Positions 41,620 through 51,169 of a stretch of DNA of 64,000 nucleotides are shown here, one piece after another. The position numbers and the translations under genes are program-made. The DNA lies in the IMG/VR virus record IMGVR_UViG_3300042290_000544; one strand, written 5' to 3'. Origin of the DNA: a virus. Every line of letters starts with the position of its first letter. The first letter of the stretch is position 1. The notes under the pieces were generated by a model that was not told the DNA's origin, searched no databases, and saw only the letters and a program-made list of their open reading frames with translations.

Positions 41620-41997
41620 TTAGATTGATACTAACTTGTACTTCTTACCGTCGATCTCAACAACCTTGCCTTCGCAAGATGGTTTGGGTTTAGTGTATTC
41701 GTTGAACTCTTTTTCGGACATTAGTTCACCATTAACCCACCATTCTTTATAACTATTAGCCCATTCAATAGCTGGTCCATCAAGGCGATGACGTTTATCA
41801 TTCACATACCATTCTTTATCACCATCGGCGCATTCGATAGCGGGACCATCTAACCGATGTAATTTATCATTTACCCACCATTCTCTATCGCCGTTAGCGC
41901 CTTCAAAGGCGGGTCCGTCAAGGCGGTGCCGTTCCTCTTTATCGTTGAACCATTGAATGTTTTTACCACAGTCGACCGTTACTTTATATGTTTGCAT
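41620..41997 (-). CDS. HRLDGPA-repeat protein (paralog 1); start revised to 41997
   Basis: Three (L/R)HRLDGPAxE..G..EW repeats; start MQTYKVTVD matches the paralog at 44099. Confidence 0.8.
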   Translation of the reverse strand: MQTYKVTVDCGKNIQWFNDKEERHRLDGPAFEGANGDREWWVNDKLHRLDGPAIECADGDKEWYVNDKRHRLDGPAIEWANSYKEWWVNGELMSEKEFNEYTKPKPSCEGKVVEIDGKKYKLVSI

Positions 41998-42001
41998 AAT
42001 T

Positions 42002-43249
42002 TTAAAGGATTCTGAGGAGCACAATGTCACCATTGATGCGCCCATTTGGTTTTGCAATCTTTGTGGTGAGTTTTTCCCACGCTTTTTCAAGTTGTTTCTC
42101 TGTGCTTCCTACGGCAATAGGAATAAATTCATCGGGCTTGCGGAGACGAATGCAGCGGGAAGACACCTCATCATAGTTCTGGATAGTGGTACCCTTGATA
42201 GTAAACCCAGTGGTTACCGTGCAAACATAGTCAAACAGTACCCGGGTCTTCACATTAAAGGCAAGGAGACGATAGGCTCCGACAATCCGAATAGGATTGA
42301 TGGAGGTAATCTTAAACTCCTCACTGTGCTTGAGGTACTGGAGCTTGGCAATCTGCTTTGTGGCAGCCGTGGGTTTCTTCTCACGTGGAGCCTTTGCCGC
42401 TTTGACACTCGTCTTAAACATCGTTAGATCGTCGACCATCGATGATAGTGCATCAATACGTGCGAGCATCTGCTTCTTGGTATAACAGCTGTAGGCTTCA
42501 GCAAGATACTCGCTGGCACCGGTCTGGGCATCGCTCATTTCCTTAAGTACGTCTTGAAGGTATTCTTCCACAAAGGTACACGCAGCCGCAGGGAGTTCAT
42601 AGTGCTGCATTGATTTGTAGATGGATAAACACTTTACCTCATCACCCGACTTGCACCATTCATCCATAAGCAGCTCAAGGTCCATAATGATGGTCTTGTT
42701 GCACTTTGCCCGAAGACGATCCATGGGAGAAATACCACTTGGTTTTTCGGCTACGATAGTTTGCACGGTATCCTTTTGCTTTGTTTTCTTACCTTCGATG
42801 ATGGCGTTTGCAATGGCTTCTTTTACAAAGATATCGCAGGGTTCAACCTTAGCCGCATCCTCGCGAAGTGTCTTAAGATACTCATTGATACCAGGATGAA
42901 TTGTTGGCATACCTTTATTGAGACACGTGCAAAGTGCACCGGTGGTCATACCAGGAAAGTAGTCGGGTGCAGCTTTTACTGCTGAAATATCTTCCTTGGT
43001 ATAGCCATTGTTACCCATCCATTCCAGAACGGCGGGCTTGGTGTCCTTTGCCGTTAGGTAATAGTTGTAGAAATTAAACAACCGAGAATACTCCTTCCAG
43101 AATTGTTCCACTGGCCAGGTCTCCCAACCATCCCAGATTGGTTCTTCGCCGGTATAACGAGAGTCGACCGCAGCAACGCCATTTCCCGACTTGCGCCCTT
43201 TCTTGCGGTTCTTTGCCGCAGCAGCTTTCAGAATGTGTTCGACAGACAT
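42002..43249 (-). CDS. conserved T4-like hypothetical protein; start revised to 43249
   Basis: FNFYNY, SINP..IVGA..L..FN.KTR, KGTTIQN.D, LRKP and NGRIN..IVLLR; the track start overlaps the upstream gene. Confidence 0.75.
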   Translation of the reverse strand: MSVEHILKAAAAKNRKKGRKSGNGVAAVDSRYTGEEPIWDGWETWPVEQFWKEYSRLFNFYNYYLTAKDTKPAVLEWMGNNGYTKEDISAVKAAPDYFPGMTTGALCTCLNKGMPTIHPGINEYLKTLREDAAKVEPCDIFVKEAIANAIIEGKKTKQKDTVQTIVAEKPSGISPMDRLRAKCNKTIIMDLELLMDEWCKSGDEVKCLSIYKSMQHYELPAAACTFVEEYLQDVLKEMSDAQTGASEYLAEAYSCYTKKQMLARIDALSSMVDDLTMFKTSVKAAKAPREKKPTAATKQIAKLQYLKHSEEFKITSINPIRIVGAYRLLAFNVKTRVLFDYVCTVTTGFTIKGTTIQNYDEVSSRCIRLRKPDEFIPIAVGSTEKQLEKAWEKLTTKIAKPNGRINGDIVLLRIL

Positions 43250-43715: not shown

Positions 43716-44099
43716 TTAGGCCATTACTAGCCGATATTTCACACCATCTACCTCAACAAACTTACCTTCACAAGATGATTTTGGCTTGGGTTTAGTGTAT
43801 TCGTTGAACTCTTTTTCGGTCATTTTTTTATCATCCACCCACCACGCTTTATAACCATTGGCACATTCAATAGCTGGTCCATCAAGGCGATGGAGTTTAC
43901 CATCAATATACCATGATTTAGAGCCATCGGCACATTCAACAGCAGGACCATCAAGGCGATGACGTTCGCCATCAACATACCATTCTTTAGAGCCATTAGG
44001 CCATTCAAAAGCTGGACCATCAAGGCGATGAAGTTCCTCTTTATCGTTATACCAACGAATGTTTTTATTTTCGTCAACAGTTACTTTATAAGTTTGCAT
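43716..44099 (-). CDS. HRLDGPA-repeat protein (paralog 2)
   Basis: Three HRLDGPA repeats; C-terminal SCEGK.VE.DG.KY.LV shared with paralog 1. Confidence 0.82.
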   Translation of the reverse strand: MQTYKVTVDENKNIRWYNDKEELHRLDGPAFEWPNGSKEWYVDGERHRLDGPAVECADGSKSWYIDGKLHRLDGPAIECANGYKAWWVDDKKMTEKEFNEYTKPKPKSSCEGKFVEVDGVKYRLVMA

Positions 44100-44107
44100 T
44101 TTATAGA

Positions 44108-44545
44108 TTATTTAAGGTTTTTGTAGACCTTGGCCCAATAGGCTTCCAGATTCTTTTGCTTGGTGTCCGAAATCGGAGCCGCCACACGGCGCCAAGAACT
44201 ACCGCCACCGTTCCAAATAAAACCAAGCTCTTTTTCGGTTGCTTTACGGTTCATGGTTTTTTCAATGTGTTTTGAGTAGAAATTCAGAACGCCTCTGGCG
44301 ACCTCCCGAGAGGTAATTTCGTCGAACATGTCAGCATGTCTGTAATTCTTACCGGTGATACGGTTAAAGTCCTTGACCATCACATCATGAATCTGAAGGA
44401 TTCCAAAGGCCTTACCGCGGTCACCGATGGCAGCGGCATTGCCGTTACTTTCGGTACGAACGAGGGCTTCCACCAAGCGGTCGATATTTTGACCCGAAAC
44501 AGTCGCGGTAAGAGCAAGAATTGCCAAGATGTGTTTGACTTTCAT
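44108..44545 (-). CDS. secreted lysozyme-superfamily muramidase / transglycosylase
   Basis: Signal peptide, ES catalytic motif (TESNGN), GD.G.AFG.LQI and WNGG. Confidence 0.75.
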   Translation of the reverse strand: MKVKHILAILALTATVSGQNIDRLVEALVRTESNGNAAAIGDRGKAFGILQIHDVMVKDFNRITGKNYRHADMFDEITSREVARGVLNFYSKHIEKTMNRKATEKELGFIWNGGGSSWRRVAAPISDTKQKNLEAYWAKVYKNLK

Positions 44546-44554
44546 TATGATACA

Positions 44555-44610
44555 ATCATAAACAAAACCACGCGGAAGTAAATCAAATAGATTGTCCTAA
44601 GCGATTGATT
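44555..44610 (-). promoter_or_regulatory. early promoter cassette with IHF-consensus site
   Basis: AATCAATCGCTTA (44598-44610), then ATTTAC-N17-TATGAT, 9 nt to ATG. Confidence 0.75.
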
Positions 44611-44627
44611 AGCAACAACCGTTGTTT

Positions 44628-44840
44628 TTAGTTACGATCAAAGCCGGTGAAAGCCTGAACCATAGGGTTCCAACACACATCCATCTTCATCTGAGCAAAT
44701 TCTAATTGAAAGGTCACCGTCCAAGTATTGAATCTTGGGTTGCTGAGTTTGCCTTTTCGAATGACTGTGGCCTTGACGTCGTCACCCATAGAGTAAACAG
44801 TAATTATGTCGCCGACATTTGGATTTGGTACGTTATTCAT
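44628..44840 (-). CDS. hypothetical early protein
   Basis: 70 aa with its own early promoter. Confidence 0.7.
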   Translation of the reverse strand: MNNVPNPNVGDIITVYSMGDDVKATVIRKGKLSNPRFNTWTVTFQLEFAQMKMDVCWNPMVQAFTGFDRN

Positions 44841-44849
44841 TATGATACA

Positions 44850-44905
44850 ATCCTACAACATTCCAGCTAAAAGTAAATCAAATAGAATGACCTAAGTGAT
44901 TACCA
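44850..44905 (-). promoter_or_regulatory. early promoter cassette
   Basis: ATTTAC (44873-44878)-N17-TAGGAT (44850-44855); 34 bp identical to the cassette at 59572. Confidence 0.78.
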
Positions 44906-44913
44906 ATCAACAA

Positions 44914-46953
44914 TCATTTAGAATTTGCACGGAAAACACCATCCCAGAGCGGTCCAGGATCGGCTTTTTCGAGGTCATCTATACGTTCTATCATCATGTC
45001 GTAGTAATCACTTAGAAAAGTCATATGTGATTTTAGATCAACGGCTAATGCACGTGCCTTGGTCCATTCTCTGGCACGGTAGAAATCGAGAAATTTGTCG
45101 TGGGAATCTGAATAGACGCGCGTACCCTTATCAAATACGGTATAAATCTTCACGCCTTCCTTCTTACCCTTTACCGCGATGCAATCAAGTTCCAGCGTGG
45201 GATACACGTCCTTCACATATTCTCGGGTGATGGGACCAATTACAAATTTCACGCCGTACGGTTTCGACTGACCTTCCAGGCGAGAGGCAAGATTCACCGA
45301 ATCTCCGAGGCAGGTATAGTCGAAGCGTTGAGTCGAGCCCATATTACCCACAACAACGGTACCAGTATTCACGCCAAGACCCATTCCGAATGCCGGGATA
45401 CCTTCCTTCATTACCTCATCGTTGAATGCCTTGAGACTTCCCAGCATTGTAAGACCCGTTTCAACTGCGTGTAAAGCATGGTCCTTATCATCAAGTGGTG
45501 CGTTCCAGAAAGCCATCTGAGCATCACCAATGTACTTATCCAGGGTCCCTTGGCTATCCAGAATGGCCTGTGTCATTGCCGTCATATACCGATTCATAAT
45601 CTTCGTGAGACCCTGAACGTCTTTTCCGTAGTGTTCGGAGATTGCGGTAAAGCCACGAACATCGGTAAACATAATGGATAGTTCTCTTGACTCACCACCC
45701 AGTTGTAGAAGGTCGGGATTCTTTTGCAGTTTCTCAACCATGGCCGGAGATAGGTACGTGCCAAACTGTTTCTTGATCTGCTGTTTTAATTTAAACTCCA
45801 TGACGAACCGCATGAAGAGTGAACCTGCCCATACAAGGGATGACGTACCCACAATCCAGGTATAGTCGGCAAGGAGTCCTTTATCGAATAAATGAAAGCC
45901 GTAATACACTGGAAGGCATACGGCAATAAGATAGATGCCAAGATTCAAGGCATAGCCCAAAAAGGAGATTGCTCCGATTAGAATAAGTGCTGCGCCTACG
46001 CCGATTGCAATTTCATATAGATCAAATTCTGCGCGGCGTTCAAGTCGGTTACCATCAAGAAGCATCTGAAGAGTCTGAAGGCTGAGTTCGTGTCCGTACG
46101 CCGTACCCAATGGAGTCGCAACGGTATTTGCAAGCCCCTCGGCCGTAAGGGCGATCACTACAATCTTGTCCTTCACGTGCCATTCATCATCGGTGTATGG
46201 AACTGATTTAAAGGTATATTTAAAATTGATCCAGACCCGACCATTGCCATCGGTCTTAATTGGAGAGGTACCCGGAACTCGAATGGCAGACACACCCGAT
46301 TCTGTAACCTTGACCTGGAAGCTGGGTTGATCGCCAAAGACGCGGAGAATTTCCAGTGGCATTGTGGGATACTTTTCCTTTTCAATCTGAATCATGAGCG
46401 GTAATCTACGCACCACACCATCAAGCTCCGGAGCCGTCAGCAACATACCCACGCCCGCGGAAGCCTCACCGATTTCCTTTAAAGGTCCGATCGCCGCTGG
46501 GTAATCAAATAGCCAGTCATCCGTGGTGCCGCCGATTGTTGCAACGCCTCTTGGAATTGGAACGCCCTTACCCTTTAATGAAGCTGATTGGCCTGTAATG
46601 ACGGGCGACTGACTCAGCATCTCAACGAATTCTTTATCTCCACCCAAACGGTCGGGCTCAGCAAAAATGATGGGTAACACAACACCGGTGGCGCCTGACT
46701 CCATGGCTTTTCTGATTGCGCCTGCCAGTTCGGTACGCTTCCATGGCCACTGTCCGTTCTTTTCCAGCGCCTTTTCATCAATTTCCACGATTACAATGTT
46801 ATCCGATACCACCTTGTCCTGCTCTCGTTGATAGTAATCCAGACCCTTGAGACGCATTACCTCAATGGGATATGGGTTGGTAATACGGAGACCCACAGCA
46901 ACCGTGAGAAGCATAAGACCAACAAGAAGGATTCTGAATGTGTGTTTGTTCAT
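44914..46953 (-). CDS. CHASE2-domain class III adenylyl cyclase
   Basis: N-terminal TM, CHASE2 motifs (IVEIDEKAL...GQWPW.R, IFAEPDR, DGVVRR.P), three TMs, and cyclase motifs FTDVRGFT, DKYIGDA, FDYT..GDSVNLASRLEG, VKGK. Confidence 0.93.
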   Translation of the reverse strand: MNKHTFRILLVGLMLLTVAVGLRITNPYPIEVMRLKGLDYYQREQDKVVSDNIVIVEIDEKALEKNGQWPWKRTELAGAIRKAMESGATGVVLPIIFAEPDRLGGDKEFVEMLSQSPVITGQSASLKGKGVPIPRGVATIGGTTDDWLFDYPAAIGPLKEIGEASAGVGMLLTAPELDGVVRRLPLMIQIEKEKYPTMPLEILRVFGDQPSFQVKVTESGVSAIRVPGTSPIKTDGNGRVWINFKYTFKSVPYTDDEWHVKDKIVVIALTAEGLANTVATPLGTAYGHELSLQTLQMLLDGNRLERRAEFDLYEIAIGVGAALILIGAISFLGYALNLGIYLIAVCLPVYYGFHLFDKGLLADYTWIVGTSSLVWAGSLFMRFVMEFKLKQQIKKQFGTYLSPAMVEKLQKNPDLLQLGGESRELSIMFTDVRGFTAISEHYGKDVQGLTKIMNRYMTAMTQAILDSQGTLDKYIGDAQMAFWNAPLDDKDHALHAVETGLTMLGSLKAFNDEVMKEGIPAFGMGLGVNTGTVVVGNMGSTQRFDYTCLGDSVNLASRLEGQSKPYGVKFVIGPITREYVKDVYPTLELDCIAVKGKKEGVKIYTVFDKGTRVYSDSHDKFLDFYRAREWTKARALAVDLKSHMTFLSDYYDMMIERIDDLEKADPGPLWDGVFRANSK

Positions 46954-48104
46954 TTCTGAATGATGTTTACTTTAAGTTTGTCTCCGAAGTTGAGTGGGTA
47001 TACCGTTGTCCCATTGGAGTCGGTAATCTTAAATGTTGCGCTTGTGTCGGCTTTTAATTTATACTGAATAGTCCCTTTGGATGTCGAGAGATTCATTATA
47101 GCGTTTGTACCGTCGGTTGTAAATCCATTATTGACGGTGGCGGTGACAATAAGAGTGGGTAATGTATTTGTCGGTGTTGCAACGGTGACCTCTGGATTCT
47201 TGGAGATAACCTCTGCTACGGCTTGCAGTATTTCTGGTTGCATTGCCTTTACATCAATAATGGCGGTTTTAGTTTCCTCAATAGGGCTTTCTTCAGCCTT
47301 AACCTGAGTAGCCGCACTAGGCTCGACCTGAGAAACCGCAGTAGGGGAATCGCTCTTGCCGCTTGATTTTTTGTTTGGTTTATCATCTACGGAATCCGAT
47401 GTATTTGCCTGTGTCTGTTTCTTTGCTTCTTTGACGGCACCAGTGACGGGTTTTGGAGTTTCAACGAGAATTAGATTATTGATTTTGCTTTCATCCTGGA
47501 AATTAAGTACAACGGGATTTGTAGGAACGGACTGCATTGACGCGATAAAGGTCGCCTGATATGCCTGAGTCATAAGGACACTACCCGCTGCATTTGAAAC
47601 CTCGATTACACCTACGATGCCCGGTGTCGCGCTATACTCGGGGCGTGAAGGTAACAGAATGACAAGACTCTTACCATCCTCCGAAACCGTCATTGAGAAG
47701 TCGGTACCGCGAACAGAAATCTTTGCCGTAGGAGTTTGGACCTTAATGTTTTCTCTGCTGTTCTTTGCAATCATGCCCGACGCATAACGAACGGTACCAA
47801 ACGCCGTCTTCATTCCGACCTTACCCTTACCACTTGCAGGATCATATACAAACTCATCAATCTTGAGCTTCGAGAACTCGGTTATCTGCATCAATGTATT
47901 ATCTTCAAATGTAATGGATACCCGAGCCTTTAATGTCTCAATGGTATCATACTGTTCTATCTCGGTTCCGATCTTACCTTCCAGCCTATCATTACCACGA
48001 ACAATCTGAGTGGGTCCGGTAACCTCGGTCAGTTTTCCGACCGAGGCACCGGCTTCAGATACAAAAATAGCCGCAATCAAAAACAGTACTGCGGCTATGC
48101 GCAT
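46950..48104 (-). CDS. FecR-domain periplasmic protein
   Basis: Signal peptide; F.D.T...I.E.S.L.ID.F.YD and V.TPTA.I.VRGTDF motifs; low-complexity linker and small C-terminal domain. Confidence 0.82.
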   Translation of the reverse strand: MRIAAVLFLIAAIFVSEAGASVGKLTEVTGPTQIVRGNDRLEGKIGTEIEQYDTIETLKARVSITFEDNTLMQITEFSKLKIDEFVYDPASGKGKVGMKTAFGTVRYASGMIAKNSRENIKVQTPTAKISVRGTDFSMTVSEDGKSLVILLPSRPEYSATPGIVGVIEVSNAAGSVLMTQAYQATFIASMQSVPTNPVVLNFQDESKINNLILVETPKPVTGAVKEAKKQTQANTSDSVDDKPNKKSSGKSDSPTAVSQVEPSAATQVKAEESPIEETKTAIIDVKAMQPEILQAVAEVISKNPEVTVATPTNTLPTLIVTATVNNGFTTDGTNAIMNLSTSKGTIQYKLKADTSATFKITDSNGTTVYPLNFGDKLKVNIIQK

Positions 48105-48107
48105 ACA

Positions 48108-48908
48108 TTAGGGAGTCGGAGGCGAGATGGTCGCAGTTGGATTTGCTGCACCATAGTTTGATGTACCCGTGGTCATAATCGGAGCAGCAGCCGTTGTGGT
48201 CTGGATAATCTTAACGGTATTGTTGCTACCAGTTAAGCTATAGACGAGGGTCTGTTGTTCCACACCAGCCTGATAGACGGTGAGGTTGTTCGTGCTACCC
48301 AGGATGGTAATATCTTGAAAATGCCCACCTTTCTGAGTCGACGCGCCGACGCTTCCGATCTGAGTAGATTTAACAATGTTTGAATTACCAGTAATGTTGT
48401 AATCAATCCAGTTGTATGAAGCATTCTCGAATCCTAATTTCAGTGTATTTGAGTTACCAACTACGTCGATGGTCACATCGCTGTTCGCAATGGTCGCCTT
48501 CGATGTATTGTTATCGGAGGTGTGATCAACGCTTACATCCTTATTCACGGTGAGTGAATTTGTGTTTCCGACCAATGACACATTGAATGTATTGCTGGCA
48601 CCGTCCATGAAGTATTTCTGGGTGTTCGCATTACCGGTAACAACTGAAAGTAAGCTCAGATTGTTGGCTCCGATAATAGAGAAATCAGTATTGTTGTTGT
48701 CTCCCATCTGGCGTGTTTCAAAGGTGATATTGTCACCCGTAATGTTGCTTGGTGTTCCAGACGAGCCAATTTTATTCAGGCTACCGACCTGAATAAGGGT
48801 TGTGGTACCCGCGGTTGTGATCTGATTGACATAGATTTGATTCTGAGCAAAGGCTGGAGTGAATAGCATAAGCCCAAGAATGAATCCTAGTATTAGTTTT
48901 GTTTTCAT
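48108..48908 (-). CDS. curlin-repeat (CsgA/CsgB-like) secreted protein
   Basis: Signal peptide (AFA-Q); Asn/Gly/Thr-rich repeats of (Q/I/V)xGxxN such as QVGSLN, QMGDNN, VGNTN, ITGNSN, LGSTN; directly after csgG. Confidence 0.7.
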   Translation of the reverse strand: MKTKLILGFILGLMLFTPAFAQNQIYVNQITTAGTTTLIQVGSLNKIGSSGTPSNITGDNITFETRQMGDNNNTDFSIIGANNLSLLSVVTGNANTQKYFMDGASNTFNVSLVGNTNSLTVNKDVSVDHTSDNNTSKATIANSDVTIDVVGNSNTLKLGFENASYNWIDYNITGNSNIVKSTQIGSVGASTQKGGHFQDITILGSTNNLTVYQAGVEQQTLVYSLTGSNNTVKIIQTTTAAAPIMTTGTSNYGAANPTATISPPTP

Positions 48909-49720
48909 TTCTTTTTAGCGTTATTGTTGGTTGCGTCTTTGAATTGCCAAAGACCTGCTGTTTGCCCCTGCTTAATAATTTCAATTACTGCCTGATCAAT
49001 AGCGCTCCGTACGGCAATGCCATTCGGTTCATTTGCAGTGAGACCAAGTTCTGACTCAATCGGGGTTGTTCCGTGATCATAAAATTTAAATAAATTGCCC
49101 GAGAGGGCAATACTCGTAATGGTTTTAGTAACAGCCACGCTCAGTAGGACCTCTCCTGTTTGAACGCTTACAAGCCTCAGTGACACTGTTACTACGTCCT
49201 TACGATATTGAGTGCTACCGGAGATACCAAGAACACTGGCGCCCGCGCCTCCCGTAAGGATATTGCTATCATATCCGATGATGCCGCCTTGCGCTATAAT
49301 GCCGGCAAATAACATCGGAGTGAGTTTCTCGGCGTCTTTACCGAGGAAAGTTTCTCTTGTCTGTGAAATGAGTTGGCGTTCCTTAATAATGTCATCAAGG
49401 CTTGCACGTTCAAGTACCTGAAACCACGTGCCATTACTTGCAAGACGTAATGCATCGATGAGCCAACTCTCCGCGCCCTGCGTGACGGCAGAAGAGAATG
49501 TGGCATACGCGTCTGCGGTCTTTCTCTGTCCCGTCTTATCCGCAAAGCCATAGACTGCAATTGTCATCCGAGGACCATCAATTGGTGGAAGCTCCGATAG
49601 CTGCTTTGCCAATGGGGATATCTGGACCTTGGGTATCTCGAGGATGGTGGGCTTGGATGGTACCGAAGCACAACCCCCGAACAACAGAGACAGTAAGAGT
49701 ATGGAAATAAATTTTACCAT
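48905..49720 (-). CDS. csgG: curli secretion pore lipoprotein
   Basis: Lipobox FGGC; AVYGFADKTGQRK, FSSAVTQGA, WFQVLER..L..I.KERQ.I, GGIIGYDSN..TGG.GA, QYR.D.VTV.LR and NEP...AV..AI. Confidence 0.93.
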   Translation of the reverse strand: MVKFISILLLSLLFGGCASVPSKPTILEIPKVQISPLAKQLSELPPIDGPRMTIAVYGFADKTGQRKTADAYATFSSAVTQGAESWLIDALRLASNGTWFQVLERASLDDIIKERQLISQTRETFLGKDAEKLTPMLFAGIIAQGGIIGYDSNILTGGAGASVLGISGSTQYRKDVVTVSLRLVSVQTGEVLLSVAVTKTITSIALSGNLFKFYDHGTTPIESELGLTANEPNGIAVRSAIDQAVIEIIKQGQTAGLWQFKDATNNNAKKK

Positions 49721-49723
49721 TGA

Positions 49724-50182
49724 TTAGCCGCCGGCGGGTTTCAATGTTCCCACAGGAACCTGAATCGTCGTAGTATTACCGGTTGCAGGATCAACAATGT
49801 AAAGAGTCACCATATCACCATTTTTTTGCCAGGTGACTGTCGATCCGCCCTGAAGATTAATGATACCAAAGTTGGCTCCATCCGAGTTAAAGATGGCATC
49901 CGTGACCTGAGATGCTAGTTGAGAATAGATTCGAGCCTGCAGGTTATTAATGAATGCATTGAGCGGTGTATTTTGCGCCGCCACTTTTGCAGTTTCAGCG
50001 TCTGCTTTTGCTTGATCTTTGAATGATTGCTTTCGGGTGCGTGCAAGGTTTTCAATGGTGATTTGATGAGAAGAAAATCCAACGCCGTTAAACATTGGAG
50101 ACTTAAAACCATGCACCATATCCGATGCAAAGACAACCTTAAACAGGAGGGCGAGGAGTAGGAATAGTAGCAGGTTTTTCAT
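49724..50182 (-). CDS. csgF: curli assembly protein; start revised to 50182
   Basis: Signal peptide, then MVHGFKSPMFNG (CsgF F.NP.F.G motif), F...LQ.RI..QL and I.D..TG.TT.I.VP. Confidence 0.82.
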   Translation of the reverse strand: MKNLLLFLLLALLFKVVFASDMVHGFKSPMFNGVGFSSHQITIENLARTRKQSFKDQAKADAETAKVAAQNTPLNAFINNLQARIYSQLASQVTDAIFNSDGANFGIINLQGGSTVTWQKNGDMVTLYIVDPATGNTTTIQVPVGTLKPAGG

Positions 50183-50453
50183 TGGTGATTGATGCGGTTG
50201 GTACGACATGCGGACCTCCGCGTTGCATTTCGATGGCTGTATTAATCTTTTGCTCCAATCTAATTAGATCATTATCAAGCATACGAATTCGGTCAATCAA
50301 CGCAATCATAGTTTTCTTTGCTTCCGACAGCTCAGAATTAATGTTCTCCGTCACAAATTTCCAAACAAAGTAAATAAAGTAGCCCATACCAGCGGCAGCC
50401 ATCATTGGCATACCGTACTGGTTGATCATCTGTTTTAATTCAATAGGATCCAT
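50139..50453 (-). CDS. small single-TM coiled-coil protein (holin-like)
   Basis: YG.P..AA.GMGYFIYFVWK TM followed by LIDRIRMLDNDLIRL. Confidence 0.7.
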   Translation of the reverse strand: MDPIELKQMINQYGMPMMAAAGMGYFIYFVWKFVTENINSELSEAKKTMIALIDRIRMLDNDLIRLEQKINTAIEMQRGGPHVVPTASITNEKPATIPTPRPPV

Positions 50454-50456
50454 AGT

Positions 50457-50741
50457 TTAATCCTTTCTGGCATCCGTCTTACCATCACTGCGTGCCAGAC
50501 GTTCAAGGTCGACGCGTAATCCGAAACGTGATGAGATGAGTGCATCAATACGAATAAGGTCATTATTCATTGTGCGCACACGGTTGTTCAACATACCGGC
50601 AAGACCATTTAATGATTTCACATCATCCACAACTCCCGCAAGGATATACTTGAGGAGAATGACGATGAAGACGCCGCCAGCAATAACTGCTGCAACAGAG
50701 AATCCAAGGTCCGCAAATGATTTCAGTGTTTCAAAACTCAT
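50457..50741 (-). CDS. small single-TM coiled-coil protein, paralog of the 50139 gene
   Basis: LGFS.AA..GG.FI..LLKYI TM followed by L.NRVRTMNNDLIRID. Confidence 0.7.
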   Translation of the reverse strand: MSFETLKSFADLGFSVAAVIAGGVFIVILLKYILAGVVDDVKSLNGLAGMLNNRVRTMNNDLIRIDALISSRFGLRVDLERLARSDGKTDARKD

Positions 50742-51004
50742 TATCCATTTACAATCTTAGAAATCTTAGATTCAAACTCTTCGATCTTTTTAATACGGTT
50801 GGGCCATTTAATGTATTCCTTCTCTGGGTTCTTCTTCAGATTCTGAAGGAGTGGAAGGATTGCTTGGTATAATCGATTCAGTTTATCTTCGTGATACGCA
50901 GCAGCCTTCTCGGCTACGTCAACTTGTTTTGTTACGTCAAGTTCGTCTTCGGCGATCGTTGTGAAACCAAAGTCAAAGGGGTCTATAGAATTATTTGTGG
51001 CCAT
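50741..51004 (-). CDS. conserved T4-like hypothetical protein
   Basis: FDFGFT...E.EL and LY.AI.PLL.NLKKNPEKEYI.WPNR motifs. Confidence 0.75.
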   Translation of the reverse strand: MATNNSIDPFDFGFTTIAEDELDVTKQVDVAEKAAAYHEDKLNRLYQAILPLLQNLKKNPEKEYIKWPNRIKKIEEFESKISKIVNG

Positions 51005-51018
51005 TGTAATAAGAGTGT

Positions 51019-51059
51019 AAATAAAAATGCTACCTCATCAATAAAGACAAGGTAGCATT
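51019..51059 (-). terminator. terminator-like hairpin in the leader of the curli operon
   Basis: AATGCTACCT-TGTC / GATG-AGGTAGCATT stem followed by TTTATTT. Confidence 0.65.
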
Positions 51060-51068
51060 CAGTATTGC

Positions 51069-51076
51069 TATTTATA
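51069..51076 (-). promoter_or_regulatory. T4 late promoter TATAAATA
   Basis: Exact consensus upstream of the 51004-44914 operon. Confidence 0.75.
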
Positions 51077-51140: not shown

Positions 51141-51169
51141 ATTATAACGTATCTAAGCAGAATGTAAAC
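51141..51169 (-). promoter_or_regulatory. early promoter
   Basis: GTTTAC (51164-51169)-N17-TATAAT (51141-51146). Confidence 0.75.

Follow-up and report, generated by a model that had tools for sequence, protein, structure and literature searches.

A divergent viral curli module that carries a FecR-domain protein and a predicted CHASE2 adenylate cyclase

Curli, FecR and cyclase genes at the locus

We examined a block of eight genes in a 64,000-nt stretch of viral DNA (IMG/VR record IMGVR_UViG_3300042290_000544; this whole stretch is the window, and positions are numbered along it). The phage is T4-like and a distant relative of HTVC008M and Melnitz (baseplate gp6 ∼36% identical, G+C ∼44%). All eight open reading frames (ORFs) lie on the minus strand within 44914-51004 and encode, in the order of transcription, an 87-aa protein, two small membrane proteins, homologues of CsgF and CsgG, a curlin-like protein, a FecR-domain protein and a CHASE2-containing cyclase. 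An earlier sequence-only reading of this DNA had described eight co-directional genes with overlapping or abutting ends, and we found the ORFs intact at coordinates that agree with it: neighbouring genes overlap by 1-4 nt or are separated by 3 nt, and the csgF start runs into gene 3 (50453-50139) by 44-71 nt, according to the ATG chosen. There was no ORF of note on the opposite strand of the block, and an Rfam scan of the window matched no family. PHROGs assigned a family to each of seven products and Pfam confirmed the identities first proposed for csgF, csgG, FecR, CHASE2 and the cyclase; the curlin-like protein was identified by its fold model. The block is a divergent member of a viral curli module that has already been published.

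The export genes are the most readily recognized. CsgG (48905..49720, minus strand) is an outer-membrane lipoprotein pore by its match to PF03783 (2e-49; 168 bits against a cut-off of 20.8) and a lipobox, LFGGC, read from the sequence, and it aligns along its full length with Escherichia coli CsgG (E=1.7e-43). The CsgF homologue (49724..50209, minus strand, with a likely start at 50182) has a signal peptide and matches PF10614 (1.7e-16; 61 bits against a cut-off of 25.8) and phrog_35372. A CsgG lipoprotein and a CsgF, both above the curated Pfam cut-offs, mark the block as a curli-type (type VIII) secretion system. As the sequence-only reading had reported, the module in the window contains no csgE or csgC.

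The gene between csgG and fecR (48108..48908, minus strand) encodes a 266-aa secreted protein that we read, from its repeat motif and predicted fold, as a CsgA/B-like beta-solenoid. It did not reach the threshold of the PF07012 Curlin_rpt model (E=0.017; 15.5 bits against a cut-off of 20.7). Across 29 homologues, the Q, G and N columns of a Q-x-G-x-x-N repeat are invariant and regularly spaced, and the AlphaFold model (pLDDT 80.7) shows strands paired one after another in a solenoid with two strands per turn. A Foldseek search of this model against the PDB gave nothing at E≤0.001. In an exhaustive structural search the top rank went to Pontibacter korlensis CsgA (8c50_A; Z 17.9, 197 residues, 21% identity), with generic beta-helices behind it. 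This suggests a CsgA-like subunit, with putative secretion through CsgG and putative amyloid formation. A beta-solenoid shape had been set beforehand as a point on which the sequence-only reading could fail, and as far as prediction goes the protein has that shape.

The FecR-domain protein (46950..48104, minus strand) matches PF04773 (2e-10) and is exported by its signal peptide; peptides of this kind were also read in CsgF and the curlin-like protein. In its structure model, residues 20-200 are confidently modelled as a beta domain, residues 204-325 are disordered and residues 328-382 form a small C-terminal beta domain. The first domain resembles the cell-surface signalling domain (CCSSD) of PupR (6ovm_R; Z 15.5, with 134 residues superposed at rmsd 2.4); a Bacteroidales anti-sigma factor (4m0h) also matches, at Z 13.9. 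Residues 19-113 also resemble the retention module of the adhesin MpIBP (5ix9; Z 10.6, 23% identity). The latter structure served as the template for the retention module of LapA, which stays in the periplasm while the adhesin threads its outer-membrane pore (bioRxiv 10.1101/198937). Although the CCSSD fold is that of a FecR/PupR-type anti-sigma regulator, the anti-sigma domain, the anchor and the partner are lacking: the signal peptide comes first and the FecR domain starts at about residue 20, with no cytoplasmic N-terminal anti-sigma domain, and domain scans found neither a sigma factor nor a TonB-dependent receptor in the block. Because there is no cytoplasmic anti-sigma domain, we rejected a FecR-type regulator for this protein.

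The last gene (44914..46953, minus strand) encodes what we predict to be an inner-membrane CHASE2 sensor (PF05226, 1.6e-40) fused to a class IIIb adenylate cyclase (PF00211 Guanylate_cyc, 1.5e-18), and the product matches phrog_35576 along its full length. CHASE2 covers residues 17-318, and the hydrophobic segments at 6-24, 308-326 and 329-347 give the architecture of a CHASE2 receptor: an N-terminal transmembrane (TM) segment, CHASE2, further TM segments and a cytoplasmic output domain. The closest solved relatives of the cyclase are Cya2, Pseudomonas aeruginosa CyaB (3r5g) and Spirulina CyaC (1wc0). By alignment, D431 and D477 bind metal, K473 and T547 contact the substrate and N554 and R558 stabilize the transition state, with Thr547 in 'DYTCLGD' aligned to 'DYTIIG' of CyaB. 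The metal-binding Asp pair, the Lys and the Asn/Arg pair named in the sequence-only reading were thus all recovered, whereas its Lys/Asp substrate pair was not: the partner of the Lys is Thr547 rather than Asp545 of 'RFDY'. A Lys/Thr pair is the signature of subclass IIIb adenylate cyclases. We therefore place the enzyme in class IIIb, and on the same pair we rejected a guanylate or pyrimidine cyclase. When 11 phage homologues are aligned, D431, K473, D477 and R558 do not vary. The residue set is complete for a class IIIb adenylate cyclase and the protein is a predicted producer of cAMP. Together, the CsgG lipobox, the signal peptides, the TM segments of the cyclase and its cytoplasmic catalytic domain agree, as predictions, with the proposal that the parts reach across the whole envelope.

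Upstream of csgF are two membrane proteins whose proposed paralogy was upheld (BLASTP E=5e-7). Paralogue A (50457..50741, minus strand) is a single-pass protein of 94 aa with a TM segment at residues 12-30, paralogue B (50139..50453, minus strand) has 104 aa, and both belong to phrog_18771 (1.3e-24 and 1.5e-30, respectively). Neither gave a Pfam or NCBIfam match at E up to 0.1 or 0.01, and a protein atlas gave no informative relative. Among 50,697 deposited phage records, only HTVC008M and Melnitz carry the family; a profile search of 1.84 billion proteins returned 876 representatives, of which the best 150 are 68-209 aa long and show no added domain or fusion. Proteins of the module have been labelled as a histidine kinase ('HK', PMC9599517). 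This label fails for the TM pair because the proteins are short (94-104 aa), paralogue A contains no His at all and neither matches a HisKA or HATPase model. The first gene of the block (50741..51004, minus strand; an ORF call) encodes an acidic soluble protein of 87 aa that is lineage-specific and without a Pfam or NCBIfam match; it occurs in 14 related loci, mostly just ahead of the TM pair.

Relatives in viruses and bacteria

At least 597 stretches in IMG/VR encode relatives of the cyclase, and the best 80 were taken for a comparison of loci, with collinearity counted in the 47 that have at least 4.2 kb upstream of the cyclase. The order csgF-csgG-curlin-FecR-cyclase was kept on one strand in 47/47 loci, over a span of 4.9-7.3 kb and with cyclase identities of 49-100%. 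The TM pair was found in 35 of these loci, nearly always in tandem; in 24 it is upstream and on the same strand, and in 10 it is downstream and on the other strand. Amongst deposited phages, a megablast search with the 8-kb region gave no match, and tblastn located the cyclase in HTVC008M and Melnitz at 42-43% identity. The sequence-only reading had named csgG/F homologues in these two phages, correctly: their records show the same gene order, with two small hypothetical genes, csgF, csgG, a curlin gene, FecR, a second curlin gene and the cyclase.

The coupling of curli genes to FecR and a cyclase is not a new observation. The GenBank records of HTVC008M and Melnitz already annotate FecR and the cyclase, and Wittmers et al. 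(2022, PMC9599517) described HK, CsgF, CsgG, CsgA/B, FecR, a second CsgA/B and an adenylate cyclase as one conserved region, the viral type VIII secretion system (T8SS). They traced its parts to Alphaproteobacteria and reported metatranscriptome expression and a global distribution; known carriers are the pelagiphages HTVC008M and Melnitz and uncultured Myo- and Podoviridae. The block in the window belongs with these: csgF, csgG, the curlin gene and FecR are collinear, with the small genes before them and the cyclase after. Zaragoza-Solas et al. (2020, PMC7029224) and Buchholz et al. (2022, PMC9004378) discussed only the curli genes, and none of the three papers mentions CHASE2, the cyclase subclass or a receptor for cyclic nucleotide monophosphates (cNMPs). 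One lineage of the IMG/VR set (L071:3242-5131 in our numbering of loci; also L069, L070 and L074) encodes a 630-aa secreted, Thr-rich protein directly upstream of csgF; its C-terminal part is barrel-like, of the outer-membrane kind, and ends in Phe, and it has no Pfam or PHROG match.

For bacteria, we took the 80 best genome loci that hold the nearest cyclases (34-39% identity), nearly all from Alphaproteobacteria. No csgG, csgF, curlin or TM-protein gene was found in these by tblastn, with the sole exception of L083, a phage-like contig binned in a Bacteroidetes metagenome-assembled genome, in which the whole module is present. Co-conservation across genomes held in the viral loci, and not in these bacterial loci, where csg genes are absent beside the cyclases. 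What does recur in bacteria is the other half of the block. An HMM search found a FecR-domain ORF in 28/80 loci, and in 14 of the 66 loci with at least 1.5 kb upstream it lies directly upstream of the cyclase on the same strand. In Thalassospira sp. MCCC 1A03138 (L136:5883-11181), genes for a TPR and beta-barrel protein (BBP2/Slam-like by weak Pfam matches), a FecR-domain protein and a CHASE2 cyclase abut, with no curli genes. In Bradyrhizobium (L147:4694-8839, L128:1542-8780 and L154:2-8797), giant FecR-domain proteins of 1,400 to >2,900 aa are encoded directly upstream of CHASE2 cyclases; a Pfam scan was made for L147 alone, where cadherin/Ig repeats come after the FecR domain and the gene abuts that of the cyclase. 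These giant proteins recall LapA-type adhesins with a retention module.

Published systems contain the same pairing. In Sinorhizobium meliloti, the CHASE2 cyclases CyaK, CyaD1 and CyaD2 depend on the outer-membrane receptor NsrA (PMC7529298, PMC13001267), the pathway responds to free ribosomal protein uL2, which was found also in bacterial extracts (PMC7529298), and the FecR-domain gene smc02177 adjoins cyaD1 (PMC5498481). In Burkholderiales and P. aeruginosa, a LysM-FecR protein and a CHASE2 histidine kinase form an operon (PMC5192318). A FecR-domain protein with a CHASE2 sensor is thus a recurrent bacterial pairing. On the strength of these loci and the published pairings, the phage module seems to combine a bacterial FecR-CHASE2 receptor pair with a curli export set of alphaproteobacterial type.

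That the two halves never adjoin in the 80 bacterial loci invites the question of whether they belong together in phages at all. Two unrelated cassettes, one for curli export and one a FecR-cyclase pair that reprogrammes the host, might simply have come to lie side by side in a hypervariable island; pelagimyophages have a hypervariable region, which separates their replication and structural modules (PMC7029224), and podovirus modules without the cyclase are known (Wittmers et al., PMC9599517). However, a chance neighbourhood sits badly with 47/47 collinear loci whose genes overlap or abut and whose cyclases range down to 49% identity, with a FecR gene that always stands between the curlin gene and the cyclase, and with the movement of the unit as a whole between phage families (PMC9599517). 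We consider it very improbable.

Promoters, lysis-type neighbours and a cNMP-binding protein

Upstream of the block, a consensus scan found a sigma-70-like promoter, TTTACA-16-TATAAT (51141..51168, minus strand; 11/12 matches), which is a motif match only. A T4-type late promoter motif, TATAAATA, follows at 51069..51076 (minus strand), 65 nt ahead of the first ATG. In 15/57 loci, the window included, the exact motif falls within the 200 nt that precede the first module gene, with ∼0.02 expected per 200 nt. Between it and the first start codon, the leader contains a 15-bp hairpin with a U run (51025..51060, minus strand; ΔG −21.9 kcal/mol, z −4.9). The hairpin may be a 5′ stabilizer or a terminator of the upstream gene; it is kept only in the closest relative, L006, and we dropped it as a feature of the module because it is not conserved beyond that relative.

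Genes downstream of the cyclase carry promoter-like elements of their own. An element of ∼60 nt, …CTATTTGATTTACTT…GATTGTATCATAATG, is repeated at 44545-44620 and 44840-44905 (minus strand), ahead of each of two small genes downstream of the cyclase, and looks like a reused early promoter and ribosome-binding cassette. An exported SLT lytic transglycosylase (44108..44545, minus strand; PF01464 1.1e-5, above the cut-off) has its own promoter-like element, and in 20 related loci an SLT gene follows the cyclase at a distance of one to a few genes. The transglycosylase is possibly associated with the module, outside its core, and could be an endolysin or an aid to envelope assembly. In one sister lineage (L026:6753-7067 and 16 other loci), a holin-like protein of 105 aa with three TM segments is encoded 0-3 genes downstream of the cyclase; its matches to phrog_6384 (6e-4) and PF05106 (0.009) are weak. 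Further along the window, 43716-44099 and 41620-42090 (minus strand) encode paralogous small proteins with repeats of 'HRLDGPA-x-E-x-x-(N/D)G-x-x-x-W' and a common tail, 'KPKP..SCEGK.VE.DG.KY.LV', and no Pfam family at threshold.

A possible reader of the cyclase product appeared in sister lineages. Searching the phage record and four large relatives with PF00027 gave one positive lineage, in which a 213-aa cNMP-binding protein (PF00027, 4.6e-21) has a hydrophobic C-terminal tail. Its gene is divergent from, and right beside, csgF in 9 distinct viral contigs, one of 220 kb, where it occupies the place that the two small membrane proteins hold in the window. Proteins of 213-218 aa are encoded at L037:3709-4350 (minus strand), L040:1867-2484, L049:513-1157, L055:4043-4687, L018:4396-5049 and L178:8001-8648; in two further contigs the gene does not adjoin the module, and L167 is too short to judge. 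The phosphate-binding cassette is intact, with invariant Glu and Arg, and the family forms 79 clusters at 90% identity. PADLOC matched the protein only to the cNMP-binding domain of PycTIR and TIR-effector models, and its scan returned only generic cyclase and cNMP-domain matches and no PycTM. A cNMP-binding protein beside csgF is not mentioned in PMC9599517, PMC7029224 or PMC9004378. This is the first internal evidence that the module itself may read the cyclase product, in some sister lineages and not in that of the window; a Pycsar-like cyclase and effector pair is absent from the window, which encodes no cNMP-binding effector with the cyclase. The family also occurs apart from the module: a phage-like contig without it (L180/L181:2081-5087) encodes a cNMP-binding protein, a TPS-domain protein, a match to the PF03496 ADP-ribosyltransferase exotoxin family and a tyrosinase.

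The enrichment of the late motif and the lysis-type neighbours hint at a late, envelope-directed role and fit it without establishing control of lysis. A module that times lysis, either by a cyclic nucleotide, made on an envelope cue, that gates the TM pair here or a cNMP-binding membrane protein in sister lineages as small membrane effectors, or with the CsgG/F pore as a gated pinholin/secretin, an idea put forward for Melnitz by Buchholz et al. (PMC9004378), would make use of several of these parts. The cNMP-binding, membrane-tailed protein beside csgF recalls the cyclase and effector logic of Pycsar, the holin-like protein is encoded after the cyclase in 17 loci and the SLT transglycosylase likewise in the lineage of the window. 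The nearest named neighbours of the TM protein in feature space are YvrJ (0.88) and the BhlA/UviB holin family (0.84), which are leads only, and the free uL2 sensed by the S. meliloti cyclases is a possible marker of lysed neighbours (PMC7529298). Yet all the holin-type matches are below or near threshold, the lineage of the window has no cNMP-binding effector, the flanks are hypervariable, so that co-location may be due to chance, and CsgG, in the outer membrane, cannot alone depolarize the inner membrane. We think a lysis timer unlikely.

A candidate sensor across the envelope and its known counterparts

The reading that we favour, at a probability of about 55%, is that the block is one unit that acts as an envelope-spanning sensor, from the surface to the cytoplasm, with late cAMP output. 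Two alphaproteobacterial-type cassettes, the curli export set and the FecR/CHASE2 cyclase, would have been joined in phages. A CsgG lipoprotein pore with a CsgF cap would export the CsgA-like solenoid subunit across the outer membrane, and the periplasmic FecR-domain protein would pair with the CHASE2 receptor in the inner membrane and relay to it the state of the pore, of the fibre or of an item bound at the surface. The class IIIb cyclase would then make cAMP, such that its level in the infected cell rises late in infection. The readers would be receptors of the host or, for some sister lineages, the cNMP-binding membrane protein that the module itself encodes. The pair of small paralogues may act as module-specific partners in the inner membrane, and we counted its tie to the module in favour of this reading. 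Inferred parts of this scheme are the physical coupling, the ligand, the direction in which the signal travels and the physiological outcome, whether timed lysis, aggregation or a reprogrammed host. The case for superinfection sensing, an analogue of lysis inhibition or aggregation as roles is circumstantial and comes from the late motifs, the lysis-type neighbours and the cNMP-binding protein of sister lineages.

Several observations weigh against such a sensor. Its central coupling has no cellular precedent, csgG and csgF never being joined to the FecR-cyclase pair in the 80 bacterial loci, and in S. meliloti SMc02177 is dispensable for signal perception (PMC5498481). A PF00027 search gave no match in the 73 kb of the phage or in a relative of 140 kb whose cyclase is 95% identical. 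The Melnitz cyclase (L001:8974-11025) has Ser at the position of N554 and Asp at that of Thr547; the Ser at the transition-state Asn hints that activity is not conserved everywhere, and the activity or specificity of the Melnitz enzyme may differ. In addition, Buchholz et al. saw no clumping in infections with Melnitz (PMC9004378).

This last point bears as well on an alternative, that the curli fibres are the function, aggregating cells or shielding them from superinfection, and that FecR, the cyclase and 'HK' only regulate them. Wittmers et al. (PMC9599517) took this view of the regulators, and their module-wide co-occurrence and metatranscriptome expression agree with it, as do the 'sibling capture' idea of PMC7029224 and the presence of a complete minimal alphaproteobacterial-type export set with a CsgA-like subunit. 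Against this view, the module encodes no transcription factor (CsgD, CRP or ECF sigma factor), a FecR-domain protein with a cleavable signal peptide and without an anti-sigma domain cannot work as FecR, and the 'HK' proteins, as described above, do not look like kinases. The genes also appear to be transcribed together from a late promoter, so that a cAMP-dependent transcriptional loop would have little to control. We regard fibres as the sole function as rather unlikely.

A more specific version of sensing starts from the likeness of the FecR-domain protein to retention modules. The protein could be a tether or plug of the CsgG pore, with its N-terminal domain held in the periplasm against CHASE2, as the LapA/MpIBP retention module is held, with its linker of ∼120 residues reaching or threading the pore and with its C-terminal domain touching the fibre or the surface. 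What switches the cyclase would be an event at the surface, such as pulling, cleavage or occupancy, and cAMP would gate small inner-membrane effectors that set the time of lysis. The candidate cues are contact, superinfection and proteins from lysed neighbours (compare the sensing of free uL2 by NsrA/CyaK), and the candidate effectors are the TM pair here and the cNMP-binding membrane protein in sister lineages. If true, the phage would own an outside-in signal whose logic is like that of Pycsar, although we hold so detailed a scheme to be quite improbable.

The envelope-spanning sensor would matter beyond this locus. The module is very common in ocean viromes, at ∼0.1% of assembled viral proteins (Wittmers et al., PMC9599517), and the hosts do not encode the cyclase. 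FecR and the cyclase are recast here from vague regulators to a FecR-CHASE2 receptor pair of bacterial type that has been grafted onto a pore for secretion, and if the sensor reading is true it would describe a rare case of a lytic phage that installs its own trans-envelope second-messenger pathway. HTVC008M and Melnitz are cultivable phages that carry the module.

Of the known systems, the pelagiphage viral T8SS is alike in gene families and order, in its place beside baseplate-hub and tape-measure genes and in having no csgE, csgC or csgD. The phage of the window differs in having one curlin-like gene, without a second between FecR and the cyclase, an extra first gene of 87 aa and a cyclase that is only 42-43% identical. 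Compared with the E. coli curli system (CsgGFEABCD), the block shares a CsgG that aligns along its full length, a CsgF family member and a CsgA-like solenoid subunit, whereas it lacks the CsgE gate, the CsgC chaperone and the CsgD regulator, its curlin repeat falls below the Pfam threshold and the residues of its CsgG constriction loop partly differ. Pycsar is comparable in that sister phages pair a class III cyclase with a cNMP-binding, membrane-tailed protein; in contrast, the pair is phage-encoded rather than a host defence, and the cyclase has Lys/Thr purine specificity and a CHASE2 receptor, with no effector in the window.

The nearest signalling counterpart is the NsrA-CyaD1/CyaD2/CyaK-Clr pathway of S. 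meliloti, in which an outer-membrane protein and CHASE2 cyclases provide trans-envelope cAMP signalling and cyaD1 lies beside a FecR-domain gene; alphaproteobacterial CHASE2 cyclases are also the nearest cellular relatives of the phage enzyme. There, NsrA is a beta-barrel receptor and the CRP-type Clr reads the output, whereas here the outer-membrane components are CsgG and CsgF and the block encodes no such regulator. The Burkholderiales LysM-FecR operon and the Thalassospira operon share with the phage an exported FecR-domain protein just upstream of a CHASE2 sensor. Neither has curli genes, and the Burkholderiales operon further differs in its histidine kinase output and in the LysM domain on FecR, in place of which the phage protein has a linker and a small beta domain.

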